Sequence record: NC_054894.1
Strand: one strand, 5' to 3'
DNA: 49,526 bases
DNA from: Escherichia phage Henu7
The notes beneath the pieces are model-generated. The model was not told where the DNA came from. It saw only the letters and a program-made list of their open reading frames with translations, and did not search any database. This document shows positions 7,499 to 18,539 of this stretch, piece by piece; the first letter of the stretch is position 1; every line of letters starts with the position of its first letter. The position numbers and the translations under genes were made by a program.

Positions 7499-8116
7499 AT
7501 GCCAGTATTACAAGGTTACAAGGTTACAGGCAACCGTTACGCCGGAAGCAACACTCCAGATGTTGTCCGTGACCTTTGGGCTACTCCGCGCGATGTTGTC
7601 GCGTATATGGAAAGCCGCTACGGTAAATATGATCTTGATGCTGCGGCTAGCGAGGACAATAAAGTCTGTGAAAAATTCTACAGCAAGGAAACAAACTGCT
7701 TAAAGCGTTGGTGGGGTAGCAAGAAGCACGTATGGCTGAATCCTCCATATTCGAATCCAGATCCGTTTGTGCTCAAGGCCATTGAGCAAATGGAGCACGA
7801 AAACCAGATCGACATATTGCTTCCAGCCGATAACTCAACGGCATGGTTTAGCGATGCGCAGAAACATGCTGCGGAAATCATCTGGATTACTGGCGAAACC
7901 TGGAAAGATGAAGAAGGGCGCGAATATTCCCGAACCGGACGATTAGCGTTTATTTCCGGCCTGACAGGTGAGCCAGTTAGCGGCAACAACAAAGGCAGTG
8001 TGATCTTTGTGATGCGCAAATTGAAAGAGGGAGAAACGCAACAAACTCACTACGTGAAAATCAGCGATATTTGCCCGTCTGTAAAAAACAAGCGAGCCAA
8101 AGCAAGGAGTTTTTAA
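7499..8116 (+). CDS. DNA N6-adenine methyltransferase (phage Dam-like)
   Basis: Motifs DLWATPRDV, DLDAAAS and NPPYS typical of phage Dam-family amino-methyltransferases; weak RBS at 7499. Confidence 0.7.
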   Translation: MPVLQGYKVTGNRYAGSNTPDVVRDLWATPRDVVAYMESRYGKYDLDAAASEDNKVCEKFYSKETNCLKRWWGSKKHVWLNPPYSNPDPFVLKAIEQMEHENQIDILLPADNSTAWFSDAQKHAAEIIWITGETWKDEEGREYSRTGRLAFISGLTGEPVSGNNKGSVIFVMRKLKEGETQQTHYVKISDICPSVKNKRAKARSF

Positions 8117-11745: not shown

Positions 11746-12138
11746 TCATGCGATACCGAATTTTTTGCGCAGTGCATCATAATCGCATCTATTAGATTTT
11801 GTGTTGAATAATTCATCGTCGCTTAACTCGTCAAGGTGAAACAGATCGTAAATGTATTTATTGCTCTCACCCTCCAGGCTATACAGTTCAAACCCAAACG
11901 GCCTCTTGTGCGAGCCGTGGCACGTCACCACGCCTTTATCTATCCCAAGATAGCCCAATGTAGCCATTCGCGGTATAAACTCAAGAGAGACGCTTGAGGC
12001 GAATTTGCGAGGCGTCATATTGGCGGCTCTTGCGAGCCGCTCACATTCTTTGTGCTGAAAAACAAATCTGGCTAAGTGCTGACGGTTAAACCAATCGTAA
12101 CTTTCGCAAAACTTATACAGATCCAGCAGAAACATCAT
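11746..12138 (-). CDS. hypothetical protein
   Basis: ATG follows the upstream stop by 3 nt (TGA TAA ATGATG), suggesting translational coupling. Confidence 0.5.
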   Translation of the reverse strand: MMFLLDLYKFCESYDWFNRQHLARFVFQHKECERLARAANMTPRKFASSVSLEFIPRMATLGYLGIDKGVVTCHGSHKRPFGFELYSLEGESNKYIYDLFHLDELSDDELFNTKSNRCDYDALRKKFGIA

Positions 12139-12141
12139 TTA

Positions 12142-13719
12142 TCACCCCATTAAAGCAGGATTAACAAACACGCGCCCATTCGTGAGGCATACGTAATTCA
12201 GATCTTCAAGGATTGGCAGCAAGTGCTCCTCAATTCGCTTCATCACGCCAGCCTGACCTAAGAACGGACGAACCTTTCGCACAGATTCGTAAATCGCTCG
12301 CGCAGTGATAGCGCCCTTATTGGCTTTTCCGAGTCTGGTTATCGTGTCGATAATCTTGATCAACTCTGCATCCTGACCAGCATGACCGGAGGCGTTTGCC
12401 GCGCTAATGTAGGTCTTGCTTAACTCCTGGAACATCAAGAGCGCCTCTTGCATTGTCTCAACGTCAATCTCTCGTGACTTTGTGGCGGTTCCGTTAACGT
12501 CCTGCCAGTTTCGGATCGTATGGATAACGGAGGCCAGGCGAATAACCTGCTTATCCATTTTACCCAACGCGCCGCGTAGCATGGTGTGAGAATATTCTCC
12601 TCCGTCTGCAAGCTTTGGCTCCATTTCCTGGCGTGCCATGTTGAGCACTCGCATAGCGGAGCGGCTAACCTTCAACGAAACGTATTGCTCCGTCATGATA
12701 TTGTGGATCAGCTTGTAATAATCCGCCTTAAGACCCGCATCAACTGGCGTGTAGGTTGTGTCTCCTTTGTCGTCAACAAACTTACGGCGGCCTAAGAATG
12801 ATTCCTCGCGCACCAGCAAGAAGCGCTCAGAAACACCGATACCACGAGCACCAGCCTCCATAATGCCGCTGATTGTTTCGTCCTGCGCAATCACAGCCAT
12901 GCAACCAAGAGCCGTAAAGCTCATGTTGTTCTCTGCGTTTGCACGAGCAATTGAAACGTGACCACTATCCCAAGCCTTTAACACCAATTCGCTGTTAGTC
13001 TTGCGCTCGCTATTGGCGTATGTTAGGCCGAGCAGTGAGTTGATACTTGTTGCCTCGTCCGAGATAACAGCAAAGTTACCCTGGCGGAAGTTGATTTTAG
13101 CCAAACCCTCTGGAGTGGTATCTGAAACAGGAAATACAACGTCGCACAGTTTAGCCAGCTTCTCCTCGTACTCCTCTTTTTCCTCGTAAAGAGCAGCATA
13201 CTCAGTGCCGGAGCGCTCGCTCTTTAATTCCTTTGCGATCCCGTTGAGTTTTGCCTGAATCTTTTTGCGCTCTTTCTTTCGTTGCTCGTTGATGCGCTCA
13301 ACCTCTGCAACAATCGGAGCAATAGCCATTGAGTTGATCGCGGATTTACCAGTAGACGGCGGCTGGCTGGTAACAACGTATAGCGCCGTTGGCTGATCGG
13401 TTCCGTGGTACTCCACGGTGAATCGTCCGAGCATTGCGGCAGACACGCAGCCTACAAAGTGCATATAGGCAGATGAAACAGGGAATTGCACAGACTCAGC
13501 CAGGCTGCGAGACAACTTGCCTACAACGTCGCAATCGTTGCCGAGGGAAATAACAGGGTATTTGTCGTTTCCGCTGTTAATGTCCTTCACGTCACCCCAA
13601 AAACCAGACGAGCGAGAGTATCCGTTTGCCTGGATTGCAACCTTAACGGCGCTCAAGCCTTGAGCCTCAGCCGTTGAAATGATTTGTTGTGGTGTCAGCG
13701 TGGATTGTTCAAAAAACAT
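12142..13719 (-). CDS. P-loop NTPase of unknown function (possibly DUF3987/YfjI-like replication-associated ATPase)
   Basis: Walker A SQPPSTGKS and Walker B FAVISDE; 525 aa; preceded by full regulatory unit with TATAAT; family assignment is from memory and unverified. Confidence 0.5.
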   Translation of the reverse strand: MFFEQSTLTPQQIISTAEAQGLSAVKVAIQANGYSRSSGFWGDVKDINSGNDKYPVISLGNDCDVVGKLSRSLAESVQFPVSSAYMHFVGCVSAAMLGRFTVEYHGTDQPTALYVVTSQPPSTGKSAINSMAIAPIVAEVERINEQRKKERKKIQAKLNGIAKELKSERSGTEYAALYEEKEEYEEKLAKLCDVVFPVSDTTPEGLAKINFRQGNFAVISDEATSINSLLGLTYANSERKTNSELVLKAWDSGHVSIARANAENNMSFTALGCMAVIAQDETISGIMEAGARGIGVSERFLLVREESFLGRRKFVDDKGDTTYTPVDAGLKADYYKLIHNIMTEQYVSLKVSRSAMRVLNMARQEMEPKLADGGEYSHTMLRGALGKMDKQVIRLASVIHTIRNWQDVNGTATKSREIDVETMQEALLMFQELSKTYISAANASGHAGQDAELIKIIDTITRLGKANKGAITARAIYESVRKVRPFLGQAGVMKRIEEHLLPILEDLNYVCLTNGRVFVNPALMG

Positions 13720-13774
13720 CTTAAAGTCTCCTTGTTGGTTGACCCGTATTATAGGTCAACCATCTTACAGCCTT

Positions 13775-13795
13775 TTGGCAATTCGTGCTATTTTA
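13775..13795 (-). promoter_or_regulatory. palindromic element plus hairpin plus TATAAT upstream of P-loop gene
   Basis: Minus strand reads AAAATAGCACGAATTGCCAAAA, hairpin GGTTGACC-TATAAT-ACGGGTCAACC, RBS AAGGAG. Confidence 0.45.
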
Positions 13796-14033
13796 AACGT
13801 TCAACTTTTGCGAGAAGTTTCGATCCGTCATGGCTCCAGCATTCGAGCGTCTCAGGATCAAAGTCTAAAGACCTGTGGAATGTGTGACCAATCAGCAGAT
13901 ATCCGCCACGTTGACGAATCTGATAAACCGTTTCGCCAACCGTGAATATTGAAATGTCGCTGTATGTCACCTTAAATCTGTTAGCCAGCATACTCTTTGG
14001 TATGTGGCGCGTGTATTCTACACCTTTAATCAT
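13788..14033 (-). CDS. hypothetical protein
   Basis: ATG overlaps the stop of the upstream gene (ATGA). Confidence 0.45.
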   Translation of the reverse strand: MIKGVEYTRHIPKSMLANRFKVTYSDISIFTVGETVYQIRQRGGYLLIGHTFHRSLDFDPETLECWSHDGSKLLAKVERLK

Positions 14034-14416
14034 GAGTATTTCGCCTCGAATAAGTAAGCACCACCAGCAGAGAAACCAACCTCCTCCCGATACAGAGTGA
14101 AGCGGTCGCCGTCCTCGTCAAACACGTAGCCAGCAACGCCGCCCAACACGCGCCCTTGTTCGATCTGGTAGCGATTGCCAGCCTTAAACGTTTTCTTGTG
14201 CTTCATGCTATGATCAACCCAAGTACATTTTATTGTTTTGGTCTTGATCTCGCGGAAATCATTAATGTTAGCCTCAGTCCACTTGCTACCTTTCGTCAGT
14301 TCTCGAACCTGGAAAACCTCCATTTCAACGAATTCACCACTGTCATTGACAGGAACCATTGCCGCTTTAAAGCGAGCTTTCATTAATTTGTTGTCAGAGT
14401 TACGGATAACTTTCAT
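14030..14416 (-). CDS. hypothetical protein
   Basis: Start ATG 14416 (MKVIRNSD) with RBS AAAGGGGA; preceded by palindromic unit with TATTAT. Confidence 0.5.
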   Translation of the reverse strand: MKVIRNSDNKLMKARFKAAMVPVNDSGEFVEMEVFQVRELTKGSKWTEANINDFREIKTKTIKCTWVDHSMKHKKTFKAGNRYQIEQGRVLGGVAGYVFDEDGDRFTLYREEVGFSAGGAYLFEAKYS

Positions 14417-14470
14417 GATTTTCCCCTTTCGTTTGATGTGGTTGCATAATAGCGGATCTAATAGACCCGC

Positions 14471-14492
14471 TTTTAACAAAAAGTGCTATTTT
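14471..14492 (-). promoter_or_regulatory. palindromic element plus hairpin
   Basis: Minus strand reads AAAATAGCACTTTTTGTTAAAA then GCGGGTCTATTAGATCCGC, TATTAT, leader CAAACGAAAGG. Confidence 0.45.
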
Positions 14493-15199
14493 GAGTTGGC
14501 AAGCCATACAGCAATAGCCAGGCCGCGAGGAGTGAGCGAGTGAATCAGTTTTGTTCGCGCTGATTTACCGCCTAATTTCTTCCAGCCTGGATTATCATTC
14601 CCAACCGGATCAACTGGCAAAGCCTCAGGCATCACAAAGCCGTTACCAGTCCAAAGGCAAGTTTGCTTATTGTAAGCGTCGCTCGCTGGGATGATATCAG
14701 GGAAAGCAGGGTGAGCTTCATCCTTGATATGGATGTAGCCGCCATAGTCGCACGGATGGAATTTGTGATCCGGCTTGCGCCATAGCGTTGACAGCTTGCC
14801 TACAGGGTTTTCGATCATGTACGGAGCGCCGAAATGATCAGCAATCTCCGCCGCAATCTTGCAGGTCGCCGCCGCCTTAACCTGGAAATCTGGATCAATC
14901 TCAGCTTTACGCTTCCAGTGGCGAGATCCGGAGTTTGCAAGGTCAGTACATGGAGGAAACGCCATAATGAAATCAGGCTTACCCCAAAGCAGGTTGCACG
15001 CGCTCGCCTTGAAATCCTCGTCAATCCAGGCGTTAACGTAGCGAATATTGGGATGCGTTACGCGCACTGACTGGTATGAGCCGTGATCACCTTCATCGGC
15101 ATTAAAACAGACAACTTCATAACCAGCTTTCGCCCACGGCATAGCCGCATAGCCGGAGCCGTCGAACATTGAGAAAACCAGGCCTTTACGTTCAAACAT
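14486..15199 (-). CDS. cytosine-C5 DNA methyltransferase-like protein
   Basis: Start ATG 15199 with GAGGTG RBS; motifs FDGSG (motif I-like), FPPCTD (PC catalytic motif IV-like) and IENPVG (ENV motif VI-like); short at 237 aa, so target-recognition domain is minimal. Confidence 0.5.
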   Translation of the reverse strand: MFERKGLVFSMFDGSGYAAMPWAKAGYEVVCFNADEGDHGSYQSVRVTHPNIRYVNAWIDEDFKASACNLLWGKPDFIMAFPPCTDLANSGSRHWKRKAEIDPDFQVKAAATCKIAAEIADHFGAPYMIENPVGKLSTLWRKPDHKFHPCDYGGYIHIKDEAHPAFPDIIPASDAYNKQTCLWTGNGFVMPEALPVDPVGNDNPGWKKLGGKSARTKLIHSLTPRGLAIAVWLANSK

Positions 15200-15209
15200 A
15201 TCTATCACC

Positions 15210-15494
15210 TCAGAACGGGAAGCAACGTTTGCAAGCCGGATCAAAATCACAGCCGCAGTCATTTACAATCATGGTTGGATCGGCAAACATCGCTCCGCTT
15301 TCCATATCCATATCCATATCGCCAAGCGCATCATCCAGCGTGCGCAGTTTATAAGCAACCTCAAGCGCAGCCTCTTTATTCAGTCCAGCCGCCTCCGCCT
15401 CTTGCAGACGGGCAAAGAAACCATCTTGTACCACAATTTTCTCCTCTAAACTGGCGGCGAAATTGCCGCCTTTAAACCAATCAGGACTTACCAA
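15210..15494 (-). CDS. hypothetical acidic protein
   Basis: ORF overlapping the upstream stop; no clear RBS; DMDMDMESG acidic repeat. Confidence 0.35.
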   Translation of the reverse strand: MVSPDWFKGGNFAASLEEKIVVQDGFFARLQEAEAAGLNKEAALEVAYKLRTLDDALGDMDMDMESGAMFADPTMIVNDCGCDFDPACKRCFPF

Positions 15495-15718
15495 GCTTTC
15501 CAGGTTTCGATATACATCGAATTTTTATCCAGGAAGTCGATCACATCTTGCTTGCTGTACTGGCGCAGAGTGCAGCGCGGCGACGTTCCAACGGTGTAGC
15601 AGCCTTTACCCTCGGTGATGGTCACTTGCTTGATTTTCTCGCCTGGAATGTCGCACTTGATGATTACGCGGTGATTGCTGTCCAGGGTTTTCATGATGTT
15701 TTGGGTTTTGAGCTTCAT
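15488..15718 (-). CDS. hypothetical protein
   Basis: Preceded by a full regulatory unit; RBS AAGGAG. Confidence 0.5.
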   Translation of the reverse strand: MKLKTQNIMKTLDSNHRVIIKCDIPGEKIKQVTITEGKGCYTVGTSPRCTLRQYSKQDVIDFLDKNSMYIETWKAW

Positions 15719-15774
15719 TCGTTTCTCCTTGTTCTTTGTTGATGGCGCTACTATACCAGGCCGCAGCGCCGGAG

Positions 15775-15795
15775 TTTTAACAAAAGGTGCTATCA
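15775..15795 (-). promoter_or_regulatory. palindromic element plus hairpin plus TATAGT
   Basis: Minus strand reads GATAGCACCTTTTGTTAAAA, hairpin GGCGCTGCGGCCTGGTATAGTAGCGCC, leader, RBS. Confidence 0.45.
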
Positions 15796-15871
15796 GTTCC
15801 AGAATGAGTGGCGGGGCGCACGTTTACCATCACCGCCGTAGTGGTCATTGGCAACTGCAATCATCCAGGCG

Positions 15872-16153
15872 TTAGCGAATATCAGCAGCCGCATAAATCA
15901 CTCCTTTAATCTTCTTGATCTCGTCAACTAGCTCTTGCTCGTCGTGAATCATGGCTGGCGAGCACTCCCAACAAGCGGAGGGAAGTTTCTTGTTCTTGCC
16001 CTTGATCAGAAATCCGCCCATCAACTCCCAATTGCAGATAAGGCGATCATCACGCATATCGTACAGGTTGAACAAGTTGCGGCGCTCGCCGCTAACATAA
16101 ATCTTCATGCCATTGTTGCGGCAGAATACGCGTAATTCTTTTGTCACTCGCAT
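15872..16153 (-). CDS. hypothetical protein
   Basis: GGAGAG RBS; ATG overlaps upstream stop. Confidence 0.45.
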   Translation of the reverse strand: MRVTKELRVFCRNNGMKIYVSGERRNLFNLYDMRDDRLICNWELMGGFLIKGKNKKLPSACWECSPAMIHDEQELVDEIKKIKGVIYAAADIR

Positions 16154-16347
16154 TATTCACTCTCCAGTACGGTTACAGGATCCAGACGCTCCAGCACAAC
16201 TTTGAAGTCGGCAAAGAATGTCGGCCTACGTTCGGTTAACTCTGTATAGGTGTCAGTCGCCAGCGTTGCGCATTCACCTTCATAGCACACCACACGCTTT
16301 CCGTTCTCGCGACTGATTGCCACCACGCGATAGGTATTCTTGACCAT
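16153..16347 (-). CDS. hypothetical protein
   Basis: GGAGG RBS; ATG overlaps upstream stop. Confidence 0.45.
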   Translation of the reverse strand: MVKNTYRVVAISRENGKRVVCYEGECATLATDTYTELTERRPTFFADFKVVLERLDPVTVLESE

Positions 16348-16547
16348 TAAATAACCTCCATCACAGTATGCTCGTCACCAGCAAGTGACCAGAGAGTGTT
16401 AGTAAGTTGCTTCACTTTCCAGGTTAGGCCGGAGTGATAGCAGACCATTTCCTCAAGGTCTATTGTGATCTCAACGCCTTTCTTGAAGATCCCACGCGTC
16501 AGCTCTGGATTGCGGCGAATAACTTTAACGTCGATCTGGTCTTGCAT
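16347..16547 (-). CDS. hypothetical protein
   Basis: Start ATG 16547 with RBS CTGAGGAA and leader AACGAAAC; the longer track ORF starts at a TTG inside the palindrome. Confidence 0.45.
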   Translation of the reverse strand: MQDQIDVKVIRRNPELTRGIFKKGVEITIDLEEMVCYHSGLTWKVKQLTNTLWSLAGDEHTVMEVI

Positions 16548-16604
16548 TTTTGATTCCTCAGTTTCGTTTTGTTGAGGCAATGATAGCGCATCGCCTCTGA
16601 TTGG

Positions 16605-16625
16605 TTTTAGCAAATCGTGCTATTC
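16605..16625 (-). promoter_or_regulatory. palindromic element
   Basis: Minus strand reads GAATAGCACGATTTGCTAAAA then TATCAT hexamer and CAACAAAACGAAAC leader. Confidence 0.45.
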
Positions 16626-16887
16626 AGTTCTTAACCTGGCTCATGCGATCCATTTCACGATACCAGATAACCAAATCTTCCAGCGCCAGGAACAAGTCAG
16701 CTTTCTTTGTCTCCCTGATGGTGTCACATACCAGGTTGATATCACATTCCAGCACGCCCAGGTACTCGCCATACTGACGGCAACCTTCAATGTTGTCTGC
16801 CTTGCTGGTGCGGCGATTGTTACGCTGCGCACGGCAAATCAGGCTGATGATGTTGCTGGTTTCTTTGCTGGTGATGTGATAGGTCAT
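16624..16887 (-). CDS. hypothetical protein (first gene of leftward early operon)
   Basis: Leader CGAAACGAACTGAGGAAAACGAAA-ATG, the same pattern as rightward early genes. Confidence 0.5.
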   Translation of the reverse strand: MTYHITSKETSNIISLICRAQRNNRRTSKADNIEGCRQYGEYLGVLECDINLVCDTIRETKKADLFLALEDLVIWYREMDRMSQVKN

Positions 16888-16944
16888 TTTCGTTTTCCTC
16901 AGTTCGTTTCGATGAATGCATTATGCCAAATCCAGATCACGGAG

Positions 16945-16965
16945 TTTTAGCAAAAAGTGCTATTC
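16945..16965 (-). promoter_or_regulatory. palindromic element plus CATAAT upstream of leftward early operon
   Basis: Minus strand reads GAATAGCACTTTTTGCTAAAA, then CATAAT, then leader. Confidence 0.45.
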
Positions 16966-17253
16966 AATCGGTAGTTAGATGATTTGGTGATTTTCTGACC
17001 TGCATTTTGATGGTTAGTTTGATGTGCGTCAGCTTTTGACGAGATTTGATGATTGTTGATTAGATTTGATTGAATTTGATTGTGGGAATCATCATGGTCT
17101 GACGATGCCGTTTTTGCGCTCTCGAAAACTCCGTTCTGTTATCTTCTGTTTACACTCGTTTCCTCTTGTTACCGAAAGTACGGTGGCGTAGTTTGTTCGC
17201 GTTTTTCGCGTGGCAGAAACAAAAAAAACTTTTAATCTCCCTATAAACAACTA

Positions 17254-17296
17254 ATAAAATCAATAGTTTATTTTATATATATTATATTTGTTTTCA
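17254..17296. repeat. AT-rich conserved element, copy 1 (second copy at 47770..47815)
   Basis: 17-bp identical core ATAAAATCAATAGTTTA followed by a TTTATAT(A/G)TAT-type tract. Confidence 0.7.
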
Positions 17297-17549
17297 CTAC
17301 GTTATACTTGTTCCATATGGTATGGGGTGGTTATGGGATTTTATTATTGGTGGTATTGGTTAATTTATAGGCATGTTCCGCTCAGGATGTGTGCGATTCA
17401 TCATTTCGTTGTGGTTGCTTTGGGTGACATATACATATCTATTATGGCCTCCGAAAAAACTGTAACACCGGTAACATGGAAAAAACACGTTTTGTGGTTA
17501 AGCAAATCAGCAACTTACGACAAATTTTGTTTTTCGGCTCAAAAAAAAC

Positions 17550-17578
17550 TTGTGGAAACCGATTGTAACATGCATAAT
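17550..17578 (+). promoter_or_regulatory. candidate sigma70-type promoter for rightward early operon
   Basis: TTGTGG, 17-nt spacer, CATAAT, preceded by an A8 tract; followed by CGAAACGAACAAATGGAGG leader and ATG 17611. Confidence 0.4.
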
Positions 17579-17610
17579 GCACCCCGAAACGAACAAATGG
17601 AGGTAAAACG

Positions 17611-18036
17611 ATGTCAGATCAATCATTTGGCGATCAGTTGCGTGCAGCAGCGCGAATGTTGGCGAGTGGTGAGCGTGATGAAATCATCATGACCGACTAC
17701 CAGTTACAGCAAGCGTCCGGCAGGGAGAAAATCAACCCAAGCCATATCCGTACAACTATGGCGCGAGAGGTTCGCACCCTGGGAGCTATCAGCGTGAAGC
17801 GAATCACGGATCCGATGGGGTACGTTTGCACATTCAACCCTGACCCGAAAAAGCGAGCGATTGCCAGCGACGAGCTACCAGCAATCAAGGCGCGTGCGGC
17901 TAACAAGGCACTGAAAGCAATTGCAGACGTGATGCCAAATCTCACAGACCTGGAGGGCGAGCAGTTGCAGGGCGCTATCATTGCAGTGCAGCGCTACCAG
18001 GATTTAATCAAGAAGCAAATCAAAGAGGAGGCTTAA
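17611..18036 (+). CDS. hypothetical early protein
   Basis: RBS AAATGGAGG; first ORF of the rightward early array. Confidence 0.55.
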   Translation: MSDQSFGDQLRAAARMLASGERDEIIMTDYQLQQASGREKINPSHIRTTMAREVRTLGAISVKRITDPMGYVCTFNPDPKKRAIASDELPAIKARAANKALKAIADVMPNLTDLEGEQLQGAIIAVQRYQDLIKKQIKEEA

Positions 18037-18038
18037 TT

Positions 18039-18299
18039 ATGAGCAACGAGAAAATCGATCAGCTTGTGGACGAAATCATTGAGACGCACGACTACGCCGG
18101 ATTCAACTCTATCTTTATGATATACCCTGACGAGTGCGGTGTGACAGAAAGCGAGCTTAAAGAAGCAGTTGAGCAGGTTGAGTCCGTACTCAGAACCGAT
18201 AACCCTGACGACGAAATCTTTTCATCCTTGACCGCTTGCGATGGTGGCGGAGTGTTTGCCCTGTCATTCATCAATGCGAATACGATCTTGACCGTCTGA
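18039..18299 (+). CDS. hypothetical acidic protein
   Basis: Starts 3 nt after upstream stop; acidic composition. Confidence 0.5.
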   Translation: MSNEKIDQLVDEIIETHDYAGFNSIFMIYPDECGVTESELKEAVEQVESVLRTDNPDDEIFSSLTACDGGGVFALSFINANTILTV

Positions 18300-18306
18300 T
18301 AGGTAA

Positions 18307-18325
18307 ATAGCACTTTTTGTTAAAA
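18307..18325 (+). promoter_or_regulatory. palindromic element plus hairpin plus ATAAT
   Basis: ATAGCACTTTTTGTTAAAA, hairpin TGCCCCGCGCGAGTGGGGCA, ATAAT, leader CTCAACGAAACGAA. Confidence 0.45.
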
Positions 18326-18383
18326 CTGCCCCGCGCGAGTGGGGCATAATAGCCTCAACGAAACGAATTGAGGAGATTGCAAA

Positions 18384-18539
18384 ATGGTTACACTGATTAC
18401 CTGGGAGCACGAGAGCAGCTACGCGGTAGTACGCGAGTTTGATTCAGTAGCAGCGTGCTACAGCCTGGCCGCTAACGGCGGTTTCTACAAAGCGCAGATT
18501 GTAAACGAGTTTGGGGTTGTTGATTATGAGTTTCATTAA
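18384..18539 (+). CDS. small hypothetical protein (51 aa)
   Basis: RBS GAGGAG; not in ORF track because of length. Confidence 0.4.
   Translation: MVTLITWEHESSYAVVREFDSVAACYSLAANGGFYKAQIVNEFGVVDYEFH

Follow-up and report, generated by a model that had tools for sequence, protein, structure and literature searches.

A compact, probable C5-cytosine DNA methyltransferase gene in the T1-like Escherichia phage Henu7

Results and Discussion

The gene and its motifs

The genome of Escherichia phage Henu7 (NC_054894.1), analysed here as a single window of 49,526 nucleotides, is that of a complete or nearly complete T1-like siphovirus (Drexlerviridae, Tempevirinae, Henuseptimavirus-like). Its leftward block of replication-associated genes contains a short open reading frame (ORF; Table 1) that most probably encodes an orphan S-adenosylmethionine (SAM)-dependent DNA cytosine-C5 methyltransferase (MTase) of the compact (~230 aa) family PHROG 757, with the inner cytosine of CCWGG as the most likely target. 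A first-pass annotation, made from the sequence alone, had proposed a C5-cytosine methyltransferase-like gene beside a Dam-like enzyme at this locus, and the proposal holds, through the predicted fold of the protein, the conservation of its motifs, its match to PHROG 757 and its 68% identity to a K42-type enzyme. The gene is an ordinary component of T1-like (Drexlerviridae) genomes, already known and annotated, which matters little in itself, and functional data have been published for its family.

Table 1. Features of the methyltransferase gene and of the second modification gene in Henu7.
Feature	Position	Strand	Detail or basis
Short gene, probable C5-cytosine DNA methyltransferase	14486..15199	-	237 codons plus TAA stop
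Shine-Dalgarno sequence GAGGTG	15206..15211	-	6 nt upstream of ATG 15199
63-nt upstream extension of the MTase annotation in relatives	Henu7 15200-15262; L001:4692-4754; L002:4709-4771; L037:38-100		
Motif I, F12-D-G-S-G16, predicted SAM-binding glycine loop	15152..15166	-	Sequence
Motif IV, F81-P-P-C84-T-D86, predicted catalytic cysteine	14942..14959	-	C84 invariant in 22-homologue and 85-member alignments
Motif VI, I129-E-N-P-V-G134 (ENV-type, Glu130)	14798..14815	-	Sequence and conservation
Motif IX/X-like C-terminal block, H220-S-L-T-P-R-G-L-A...L-A-N235-S-K	14489..14542	-	Conservation
Loops in place of a target-recognition domain, residues ~146-206, flanking strand 180-185	14582..14764	-	Secondary structure of model
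Dam-family N6-adenine DNA methyltransferase	7499..8116	+	PF05869, E=1.1e-62; NPPY motif

The 237-aa ORF is real, and the FDGSG, FPPCTD and IENPVG motifs on which the proposal was based occur in the order claimed. Motif I aligns with motif I of DNMT3B and of Pfam PF00145; G14, S15 and G16 are invariant among 22 homologues, and the motif loosens to LFDxTG in the widest alignment, which comprised 85 diverse family representatives with 33-51% identity to the Henu7 protein. Across this wider set C84 and P132 never vary, and at least 90% of members conserve E130, N131, K178 and R220. Motif VI is an ENV motif with an inserted proline. Towards the C-terminus, S221-L-T-P-R-G226 and N235 are invariant in the 22 homologues, forming a block that resembles motifs IX (RxLTxRE) and X (GN) by pattern only, as if the two were fused.

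The protein is predicted to adopt a class I SAM-methyltransferase fold, and its nearest structural neighbours are C5-methyltransferases, the best being DNMT3A and DNMT3B, with 176-195 residues matched to enzymes of 284-1834 aa. The first-pass annotation was also correct in remarking that an obvious large target-recognition domain (TRD) is missing from these 237 residues: in the structural model there is no discrete TRD, with only ~60 residues of loops between strand 145-147 and helix 214-221 where it would sit. This region includes the stretch D174-A-Y-N-K178-Q179-T-C and a D-N-P-G-W loop, the latter being a subtype in common with phage KarlJaspers, and the loops may contribute to recognition. 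The protein is thus a C5-methyltransferase catalytic domain without the usual TRD. The minimal module may also serve as a domain in fusion proteins, as structurally similar short modules (TMq 0.63-0.67, 23-27% identity) lie within two very large helicase-type proteins from uncultured phages, the BFVD models A0A6J5SE15 (1397 aa) and A0A6J5NPY6 (1126 aa).

Family assignment

The match to PF00145 that had been put forward as the check on the initial assignment was not significant, with a score of 12.4 bits where the cut-off is 22 (E=0.1). It lies below the gathering threshold and covers only the N-terminal third of the protein (residues 8-94); PF00145 is touched by 14 of the 22 close homologues (best E=1.3e-6), and an E value below 0.01 was reached by just two of the 85 diverse family members. 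A search of NCBIfam with the Henu7 protein gave no match, and sequence searches of the PDB, family profiles included, gave E values of at least 0.12. Comparison with E. coli Dcm using hhalign returned a probability of 1% over 26 columns around motif IV, which is a weak test, as the template was a single sequence. Furthermore, motif VIII (QxRxR) is absent from both the Henu7 protein and the family consensus, with W140-R141-K and K178 being candidates for its functional substitutes. The limited reach of the PF00145 match, the PDB and Dcm comparisons, and the missing motif VIII all weigh against assignment as a C5-methyltransferase; following the failure of the PF00145 test, the case for it has to be made on other grounds.

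The first of these is the match to PHROG 757, annotated as a DNA methyltransferase, which extends over nearly the whole protein, aligning residues 3-236 with positions 12-219 of the 247-position profile (E=4.5e-83). The family is large and uniformly compact, comprising over 3000 clusters when grouped at 90% identity, nearly all of 225-260 aa, and 1134 family representatives at E<=0.001; members were found in 1497 of 50,697 phage records, distributed over several phage families. For the homologue in the Pantoea phage AAS23, which is 60% identical to the Henu7 protein, the authors of that genome reported an HHpred probability of 99.7% to a canonical cytosine/C5-methyltransferase.

The gene is common among close relatives of Henu7. 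A survey of 30 related, Tempevirinae-type IMG/VR loci around the helicase gene identified an intact MTase gene in 26, a truncated locus ending before the gene position in one, and artefactual disruptions of the gene, considered below, in three. Phage T1 (L036, NC_005833) has the Dam enzyme and lacks a homologue of the short C5-methyltransferase (best tblastn E=3.4), so not every member of the Drexlerviridae has the gene.

Characterised orthologues and related enzymes

The most direct functional evidence comes from phage K42, which was used in a preprint on retron Ec86 and is 95% identical to KarlJaspers (Bas06) (bioRxiv 10.1101/2023.08.16.553469). In mutants of K42 that escaped the retron, the lesions lay in a 711-bp dcm gene, loss of function of which conferred escape; expression of this gene was toxic only in retron-carrying cells, and multicopy single-stranded DNA (msDNA) of cells expressing it had high levels of 5-methylcytosine (5mC), as measured by liquid chromatography coupled to mass spectrometry (LC-MS) (bioRxiv 10.1101/2023.08.16.553469). 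A C82A/E128A/K175A/K176A quadruple mutant was inactive, and did not generate high msDNA 5mC (bioRxiv 10.1101/2023.08.16.553469). Later papers treat phage Dcm as an established trigger of retron Eco1. The KarlJaspers protein (bas06_0055), to which the K42 enzyme is near-identical, annotated in the BASEL collection as a "Dcm-like C5 cytosine methyltransferase", is 68% identical to that of Henu7 over its full length (E=1e-118). The two are of near-equal size (236 and 237 aa), belong to PHROG 757, have the "DNPGW" loop subtype and lie in the same gene order of helicase, small ORFs, MTase and a Cys-rich small ORF. The K42/KarlJaspers residues C82, E128 and K175 are matched in Henu7 by C84, E130 and K178, all of which are conserved, whereas K176 corresponds to Gln179, a position that is variable in the Henu7 sub-lineage; this difference counts against activity of the Henu7 allele. 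Retron triggering is documented for the K42 enzyme only, and would apply to the Henu7 allele by extrapolation.

Nearer still are the Henuseptimavirus relatives IsaakIselin (Bas10), Samwise and AS5, which have a syntenic MTase gene with 93-97% protein identity; its product is labelled as a "Dcm-like C5 cytosine methyltransferase" or "DNA methyltransferase", except in AS5, where it is a "hypothetical protein". E. coli Dcm, of the M.EcoRII type, relies on the same chemistry, through its motif IV cysteine, and is likely to share its target with the Henu7 enzyme. Yet Dcm is a 472-aa protein that possesses a large TRD together with an N-terminal extension, and has no detectable full-length similarity to the 237-aa phage protein, so to judge by sequence comparison "Dcm-like" is a functional label, rather than a sign of close kinship. 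M.HhaI and M.HaeIII, both of PF00145, share the class I fold, the order of motifs I, IV and VI, an IX-like RxLTPR and an X-like (G/A)N, whereas the Henu7 protein is ~90-100 residues shorter than either, without a discrete TRD or small domain, or QxRxR. The catalytic domains of DNMT3A and DNMT3B are 13-18% identical to the Henu7 protein, and differ in that DNMT3 reads CG and acts as a hetero- or homo-tetramer with regulatory domains.

The first-pass annotation allowed that so short a protein might modify a different substrate. This alternative is not favoured, although one further DNA substrate, the retron msDNA, is documented for the orthologue. That the enzyme does not act as a DNA methyltransferase in vivo, instead methylating RNA in the manner of DNMT2, or transferring a carboxymethyl group from carboxy-SAM in the manner of phage CmoX, is very improbable, given that 5mC generated on DNA by the orthologue was detected by LC-MS. 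The RNA-substrate version has no support beyond similarity of fold. The carboxymethyltransferase version was rejected, as CmoX (PDB 8yf3; PMC12783734) is defined by an arginine replacing the motif X asparagine and by linkage to cmoA, whereas Asn235 is invariant in the Henu7 family, as in methyl-transferring rather than carboxymethyl-transferring enzymes, and the product of the orthologue is 5mC. No cmoA-like gene was found among the neighbouring ORFs, to which the scan was confined.

Target specificity

The evidence pointing to CCWGG is indirect. Firstly, the retron preprint adopted CCWGG from the specificity of host Dcm, and found that changing either cytosine of the CCTGG site in the msDNA abolished defence (bioRxiv 10.1101/2023.08.16.553469). 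Secondly, restriction analysis is reported by the authors of the AAS23 genome to have shown that its virion DNA was both Dam- and Dcm-methylated. Thirdly, a distinctive pattern of miscalls at CCWGG is present in three public genomes of Henu7 relatives. These are the three loci with disrupted MTase genes, which contain almost no CCWGG (1/29, 0/28 and 1/20 for L033, L034 and L035), whereas all loci with an intact gene contain ~1.5-2.6 times the expected number. Such a contrast would appear to be a natural experiment tying the enzyme to the protection of CCWGG, but this interpretation was rejected, because the losses are an artefact of nanopore sequencing.

The loci in question belong to Shigella phage 2019SD1 (L034, NC_049820), Citrobacter phage HCF1 (L035, NC_054897) and a relative of Vc1/STSR3 (L033). 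Phage 2019SD1 was sequenced on native DNA with Oxford Nanopore R9.4 reads only, processed with Albacore and Canu; the sequencing method was confirmed for this phage alone, and for the other two it was deduced from the same pattern of errors. At positions where relatives have CCWGG, 0/67 sites were kept and 27/67 contained deletions, while 27-74% of control motifs were kept. The miscalls are stereotyped substitutions and 1-2-nt deletions, and the frameshifts in the MTase genes of L033 and L035 fall exactly on a CCAGG. A motif-agnostic scan of 2019SD1 found that 0/46 CCAGG/CCTGG sites were kept, with the next-worst 5-mer at 36%, and there was no such outlier in a control locus. This implies that the native virion DNA of all three relatives carries a modification at practically all CCWGG sites, and detectably in this manner at no other 5-mer, which fits a phage enzyme of the Dcm type. 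All three public genomes contain false frameshifts and stops resulting from miscalls at modified CCWGG, including within the MTase gene itself, and such assemblies, generated from native DNA by nanopore sequencing only, can badly mislead analyses of motif avoidance and pseudogenes in public phage genomes.

Several considerations limit the case for CCWGG. Within the K42 system, the support for this motif consists only of the msDNA site mutants, tested in a dcm+ strain, and host Dcm and the phage enzyme are not separable as sources of the modification evident from restriction analysis and nanopore sequencing. The retention of sites is similarly equivocal. The Henu7 genome contains 136 CCWGG, compared with 86 expected by composition and 134 by a Markov model, and so has not been purged of them; however, phage T1 retains CCWGG without having the MTase (83 observed, 71 expected). 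Retention is therefore not diagnostic, and this evidence was downgraded.

An active C5-cytosine DNA methyltransferase with another specificity, such as a shorter or different motif of the kind recognised by DNMT3 (CG) or CmoX (GC), is the alternative to be weighed here. It would accord with the missing TRD, as the best structural neighbours, DNMT3A and DNMT3B, have a minimal TRD and 2-bp specificity, and with the specificity of the K42 orthologue having been assigned without direct mapping. Moreover, controls in dcm+ MG1655 had low msDNA 5mC, meaning host Dcm and the phage enzyme differ in their activity on msDNA. Yet such a specificity would have to accommodate the loss of retron defence on mutation of either cytosine of CCTGG, the Dcm methylation of AAS23 DNA, and the status of CCWGG as the sole 5-mer with anomalous calls in native 2019SD1 reads; and general methylation of CC, CCNGG or GC would make the purging of CCSGG and GGSCC, described below, unnecessary. 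Another specificity consequently appears unlikely, and the evidence from relatives, taken as a whole, indicates that CCWGG is probably the specificity of the Henu7 enzyme.

The substitution at Arg220

One residue sets the Henu7 protein apart from its homologues. Codon 220 (14540-14542, minus strand) is CAC, encoding histidine, a CGC to CAC change relative to a conserved arginine at the head of the motif IX-like block. Close homologues have arginine at this position in 21/21 cases and diverse homologues in 82/84, as do the related loci with an intact gene (29 of 29). IsaakIselin and Samwise also have it, as do the 97%-identical protein of AS5 and the representative of the 95%-identity cluster (391 member sequences), making histidine unique to Henu7 among the sequences compared. 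This near-universality counts against the Henu7 allele being fully functional; the substitution may have no effect, may stem from an error in sequencing or may mark a hypomorphic allele.

On one alternative reading, the family consists of genuine methyltransferases but the Henu7 allele is attenuated or inactive, through either neutral decay or selection against an enzyme that methylation-sensing defences such as retron Eco1 detect; loss of function in the K42 gene enables escape from retron Ec86. A naturally occurring hypomorph favoured in this way is a lesser possibility than the novel mode of DNA reading considered below. Nevertheless, the change is single and fairly conservative, and affects neither of the catalytic motifs (IV and VI); the ORF is otherwise undamaged and retains every other invariant residue; the 136 CCWGG sites are still present; and a sequencing error might explain the change. 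Impairment through this substitution hence seems quite improbable, and the Henu7 enzyme is inferred to be active.

Proposed mechanism and significance

The chemistry would be that of all C5-methyltransferases. Motif I (FDGSG) would bind SAM, and the target cytosine would be flipped out of the DNA; Cys84 of motif IV (PPC) would then attack C6, while Glu130 of motif VI (ENPV) would protonate N3. Following transfer of the methyl group to C5, the enzyme would be freed by beta-elimination. In place of a TRD, the sequence may be read by the short loops (~146-213) together with the condensed motif IX/X block, with the inner cytosine of CCWGG as the most likely target, such that the mark would be identical to that of host Dcm. 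The likely benefit would be the complete methylation of fast-replicating phage DNA, protecting it against EcoRII-type enzymes. The cost, known from the orthologue, is that the mark is also placed on the msDNA of retron Eco1/Ec86, and abortive infection follows.

The family may thus be both a counter-restriction tool of phages and, through the mark on retron Eco1 msDNA, their Achilles heel. It is also of interest as an unusually minimal type of C5-methyltransferase, as it poses the question of how ~230 aa without a TRD might read a 5-bp site. Tentatively, it could represent the smallest class of sequence-specific DNA C5-methyltransferases, lacking both TRD and QxRxR while recognising a 5-bp site, and might then do so through a mode of reading unlike that of any solved C5-methyltransferase, such as by the 146-213 loops of a DNMT3-like dimer, although this is rather doubtful.

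Start codon and gene context

The MTase region of Henu7 is ~95-96% identical to those of Enterobacter phage AS5, Klebsiella phage Samwise and Escherichia phage IsaakIselin, in which GenBank places the start at an ATG 63 nt farther upstream, yielding a protein of 258 aa. The added stretch runs into the previous ORF, is not preceded by a Shine-Dalgarno sequence and is out of frame in KarlJaspers, such that the 258-aa frame is not conserved. In contrast, the GAGGTG upstream of the shorter frame overlaps the TGA stop (15210-15212) of the preceding ORF, and this arrangement of stop, Shine-Dalgarno sequence and ATG is conserved with KarlJaspers, IsaakIselin and Samwise. Among the K42 escapers, one point mutation lies 9 bp upstream of the homologous short MTase start (bioRxiv 10.1101/2023.08.16.553469). 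The 237-aa start is therefore favoured, on the basis of the 6-nt spacing of the Shine-Dalgarno sequence, the conserved arrangement and the position of the escaper mutation; from these sequence features it is the better supported of the two, and the GenBank start in the close relatives is probably misannotated.

Directly upstream, and apparently translationally coupled to the MTase gene, is a 94-aa ORF (15210-15494, minus strand) with a Cys-rich C-terminus (CGCDFDPACKRCFPF) and no match in Pfam. It is conserved in 345 phage records, mostly of Drexlerviridae, and its own stop overlaps the MTase Shine-Dalgarno sequence. The idea that it encodes a partner recognition subunit, one of three ALTERNATIVES considered, was rejected: with 345 records against the 1497 of the MTase family, an obligate partnership does not hold. 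At a distance of three ORFs downstream of the MTase gene is that for a 525-aa DUF3987 protein (12142-13719, minus strand, E=1.2e-40), which is helicase-like and annotated as "helicase" in relatives; a table of tblastn matches indicates that the linkage of MTase and helicase genes extends to Dhillonvirus-type phages (HK578 and SECphi4). A scan for promoters and terminators over 12000-18500 returned fewer matches than did shuffled sequence, and was uninformative.

The Dam-like gene and avoidance of restriction sites

The Dam-family gene is a second, independent modification gene of Henu7, and its product, the second METHYLTRANSFERASE, shares 75% identity with the Dam region of T1. The suggestion that the two genes give the phage two DNA-modification activities is plausible, this being a known property of Drexlerviridae: methyltransferases of the N6-adenine type, the C5-cytosine type or both are abundantly encoded in the family, according to the BASEL paper. 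The further suggestion of broad evasion of restriction-modification (RM) was overstated, because at most two motifs would be covered (GATC and, probably, CCWGG), and because of the extent to which palindromes are avoided. In the BASEL study, moreover, RM systems acted strongly on most Drexlerviridae, and this sensitivity bore no simple relation to the presence of methyltransferase genes.

Across the whole Henu7 genome (1-49526), CCSGG, GGWCC and GGSCC each occur zero times, compared with ~80-86 expected from composition; GGCC occurs 67 times against 165 expected, CTAG 39 times against 191, and 19 of the 64 hexamer palindromes are absent. GATC is instead in excess (320 against 191 expected), and GATC, CCWGG, GCGC and GCWGC are all at or above expectation. 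The main anti-restriction signature of Henu7 is the wholesale loss of palindromic sites. Phage T1 has not been purged of CCSGG (65 against 59). Three IMG/VR loci with an intact MTase 73-89% identical to that of Henu7 (L011, L012 and L013) tolerate CCSGG (28/39, 43/38), while GGWCC is still missing from them. Site avoidance hence differs between sub-lineages, presumably reflecting the RM repertoires of their hosts.
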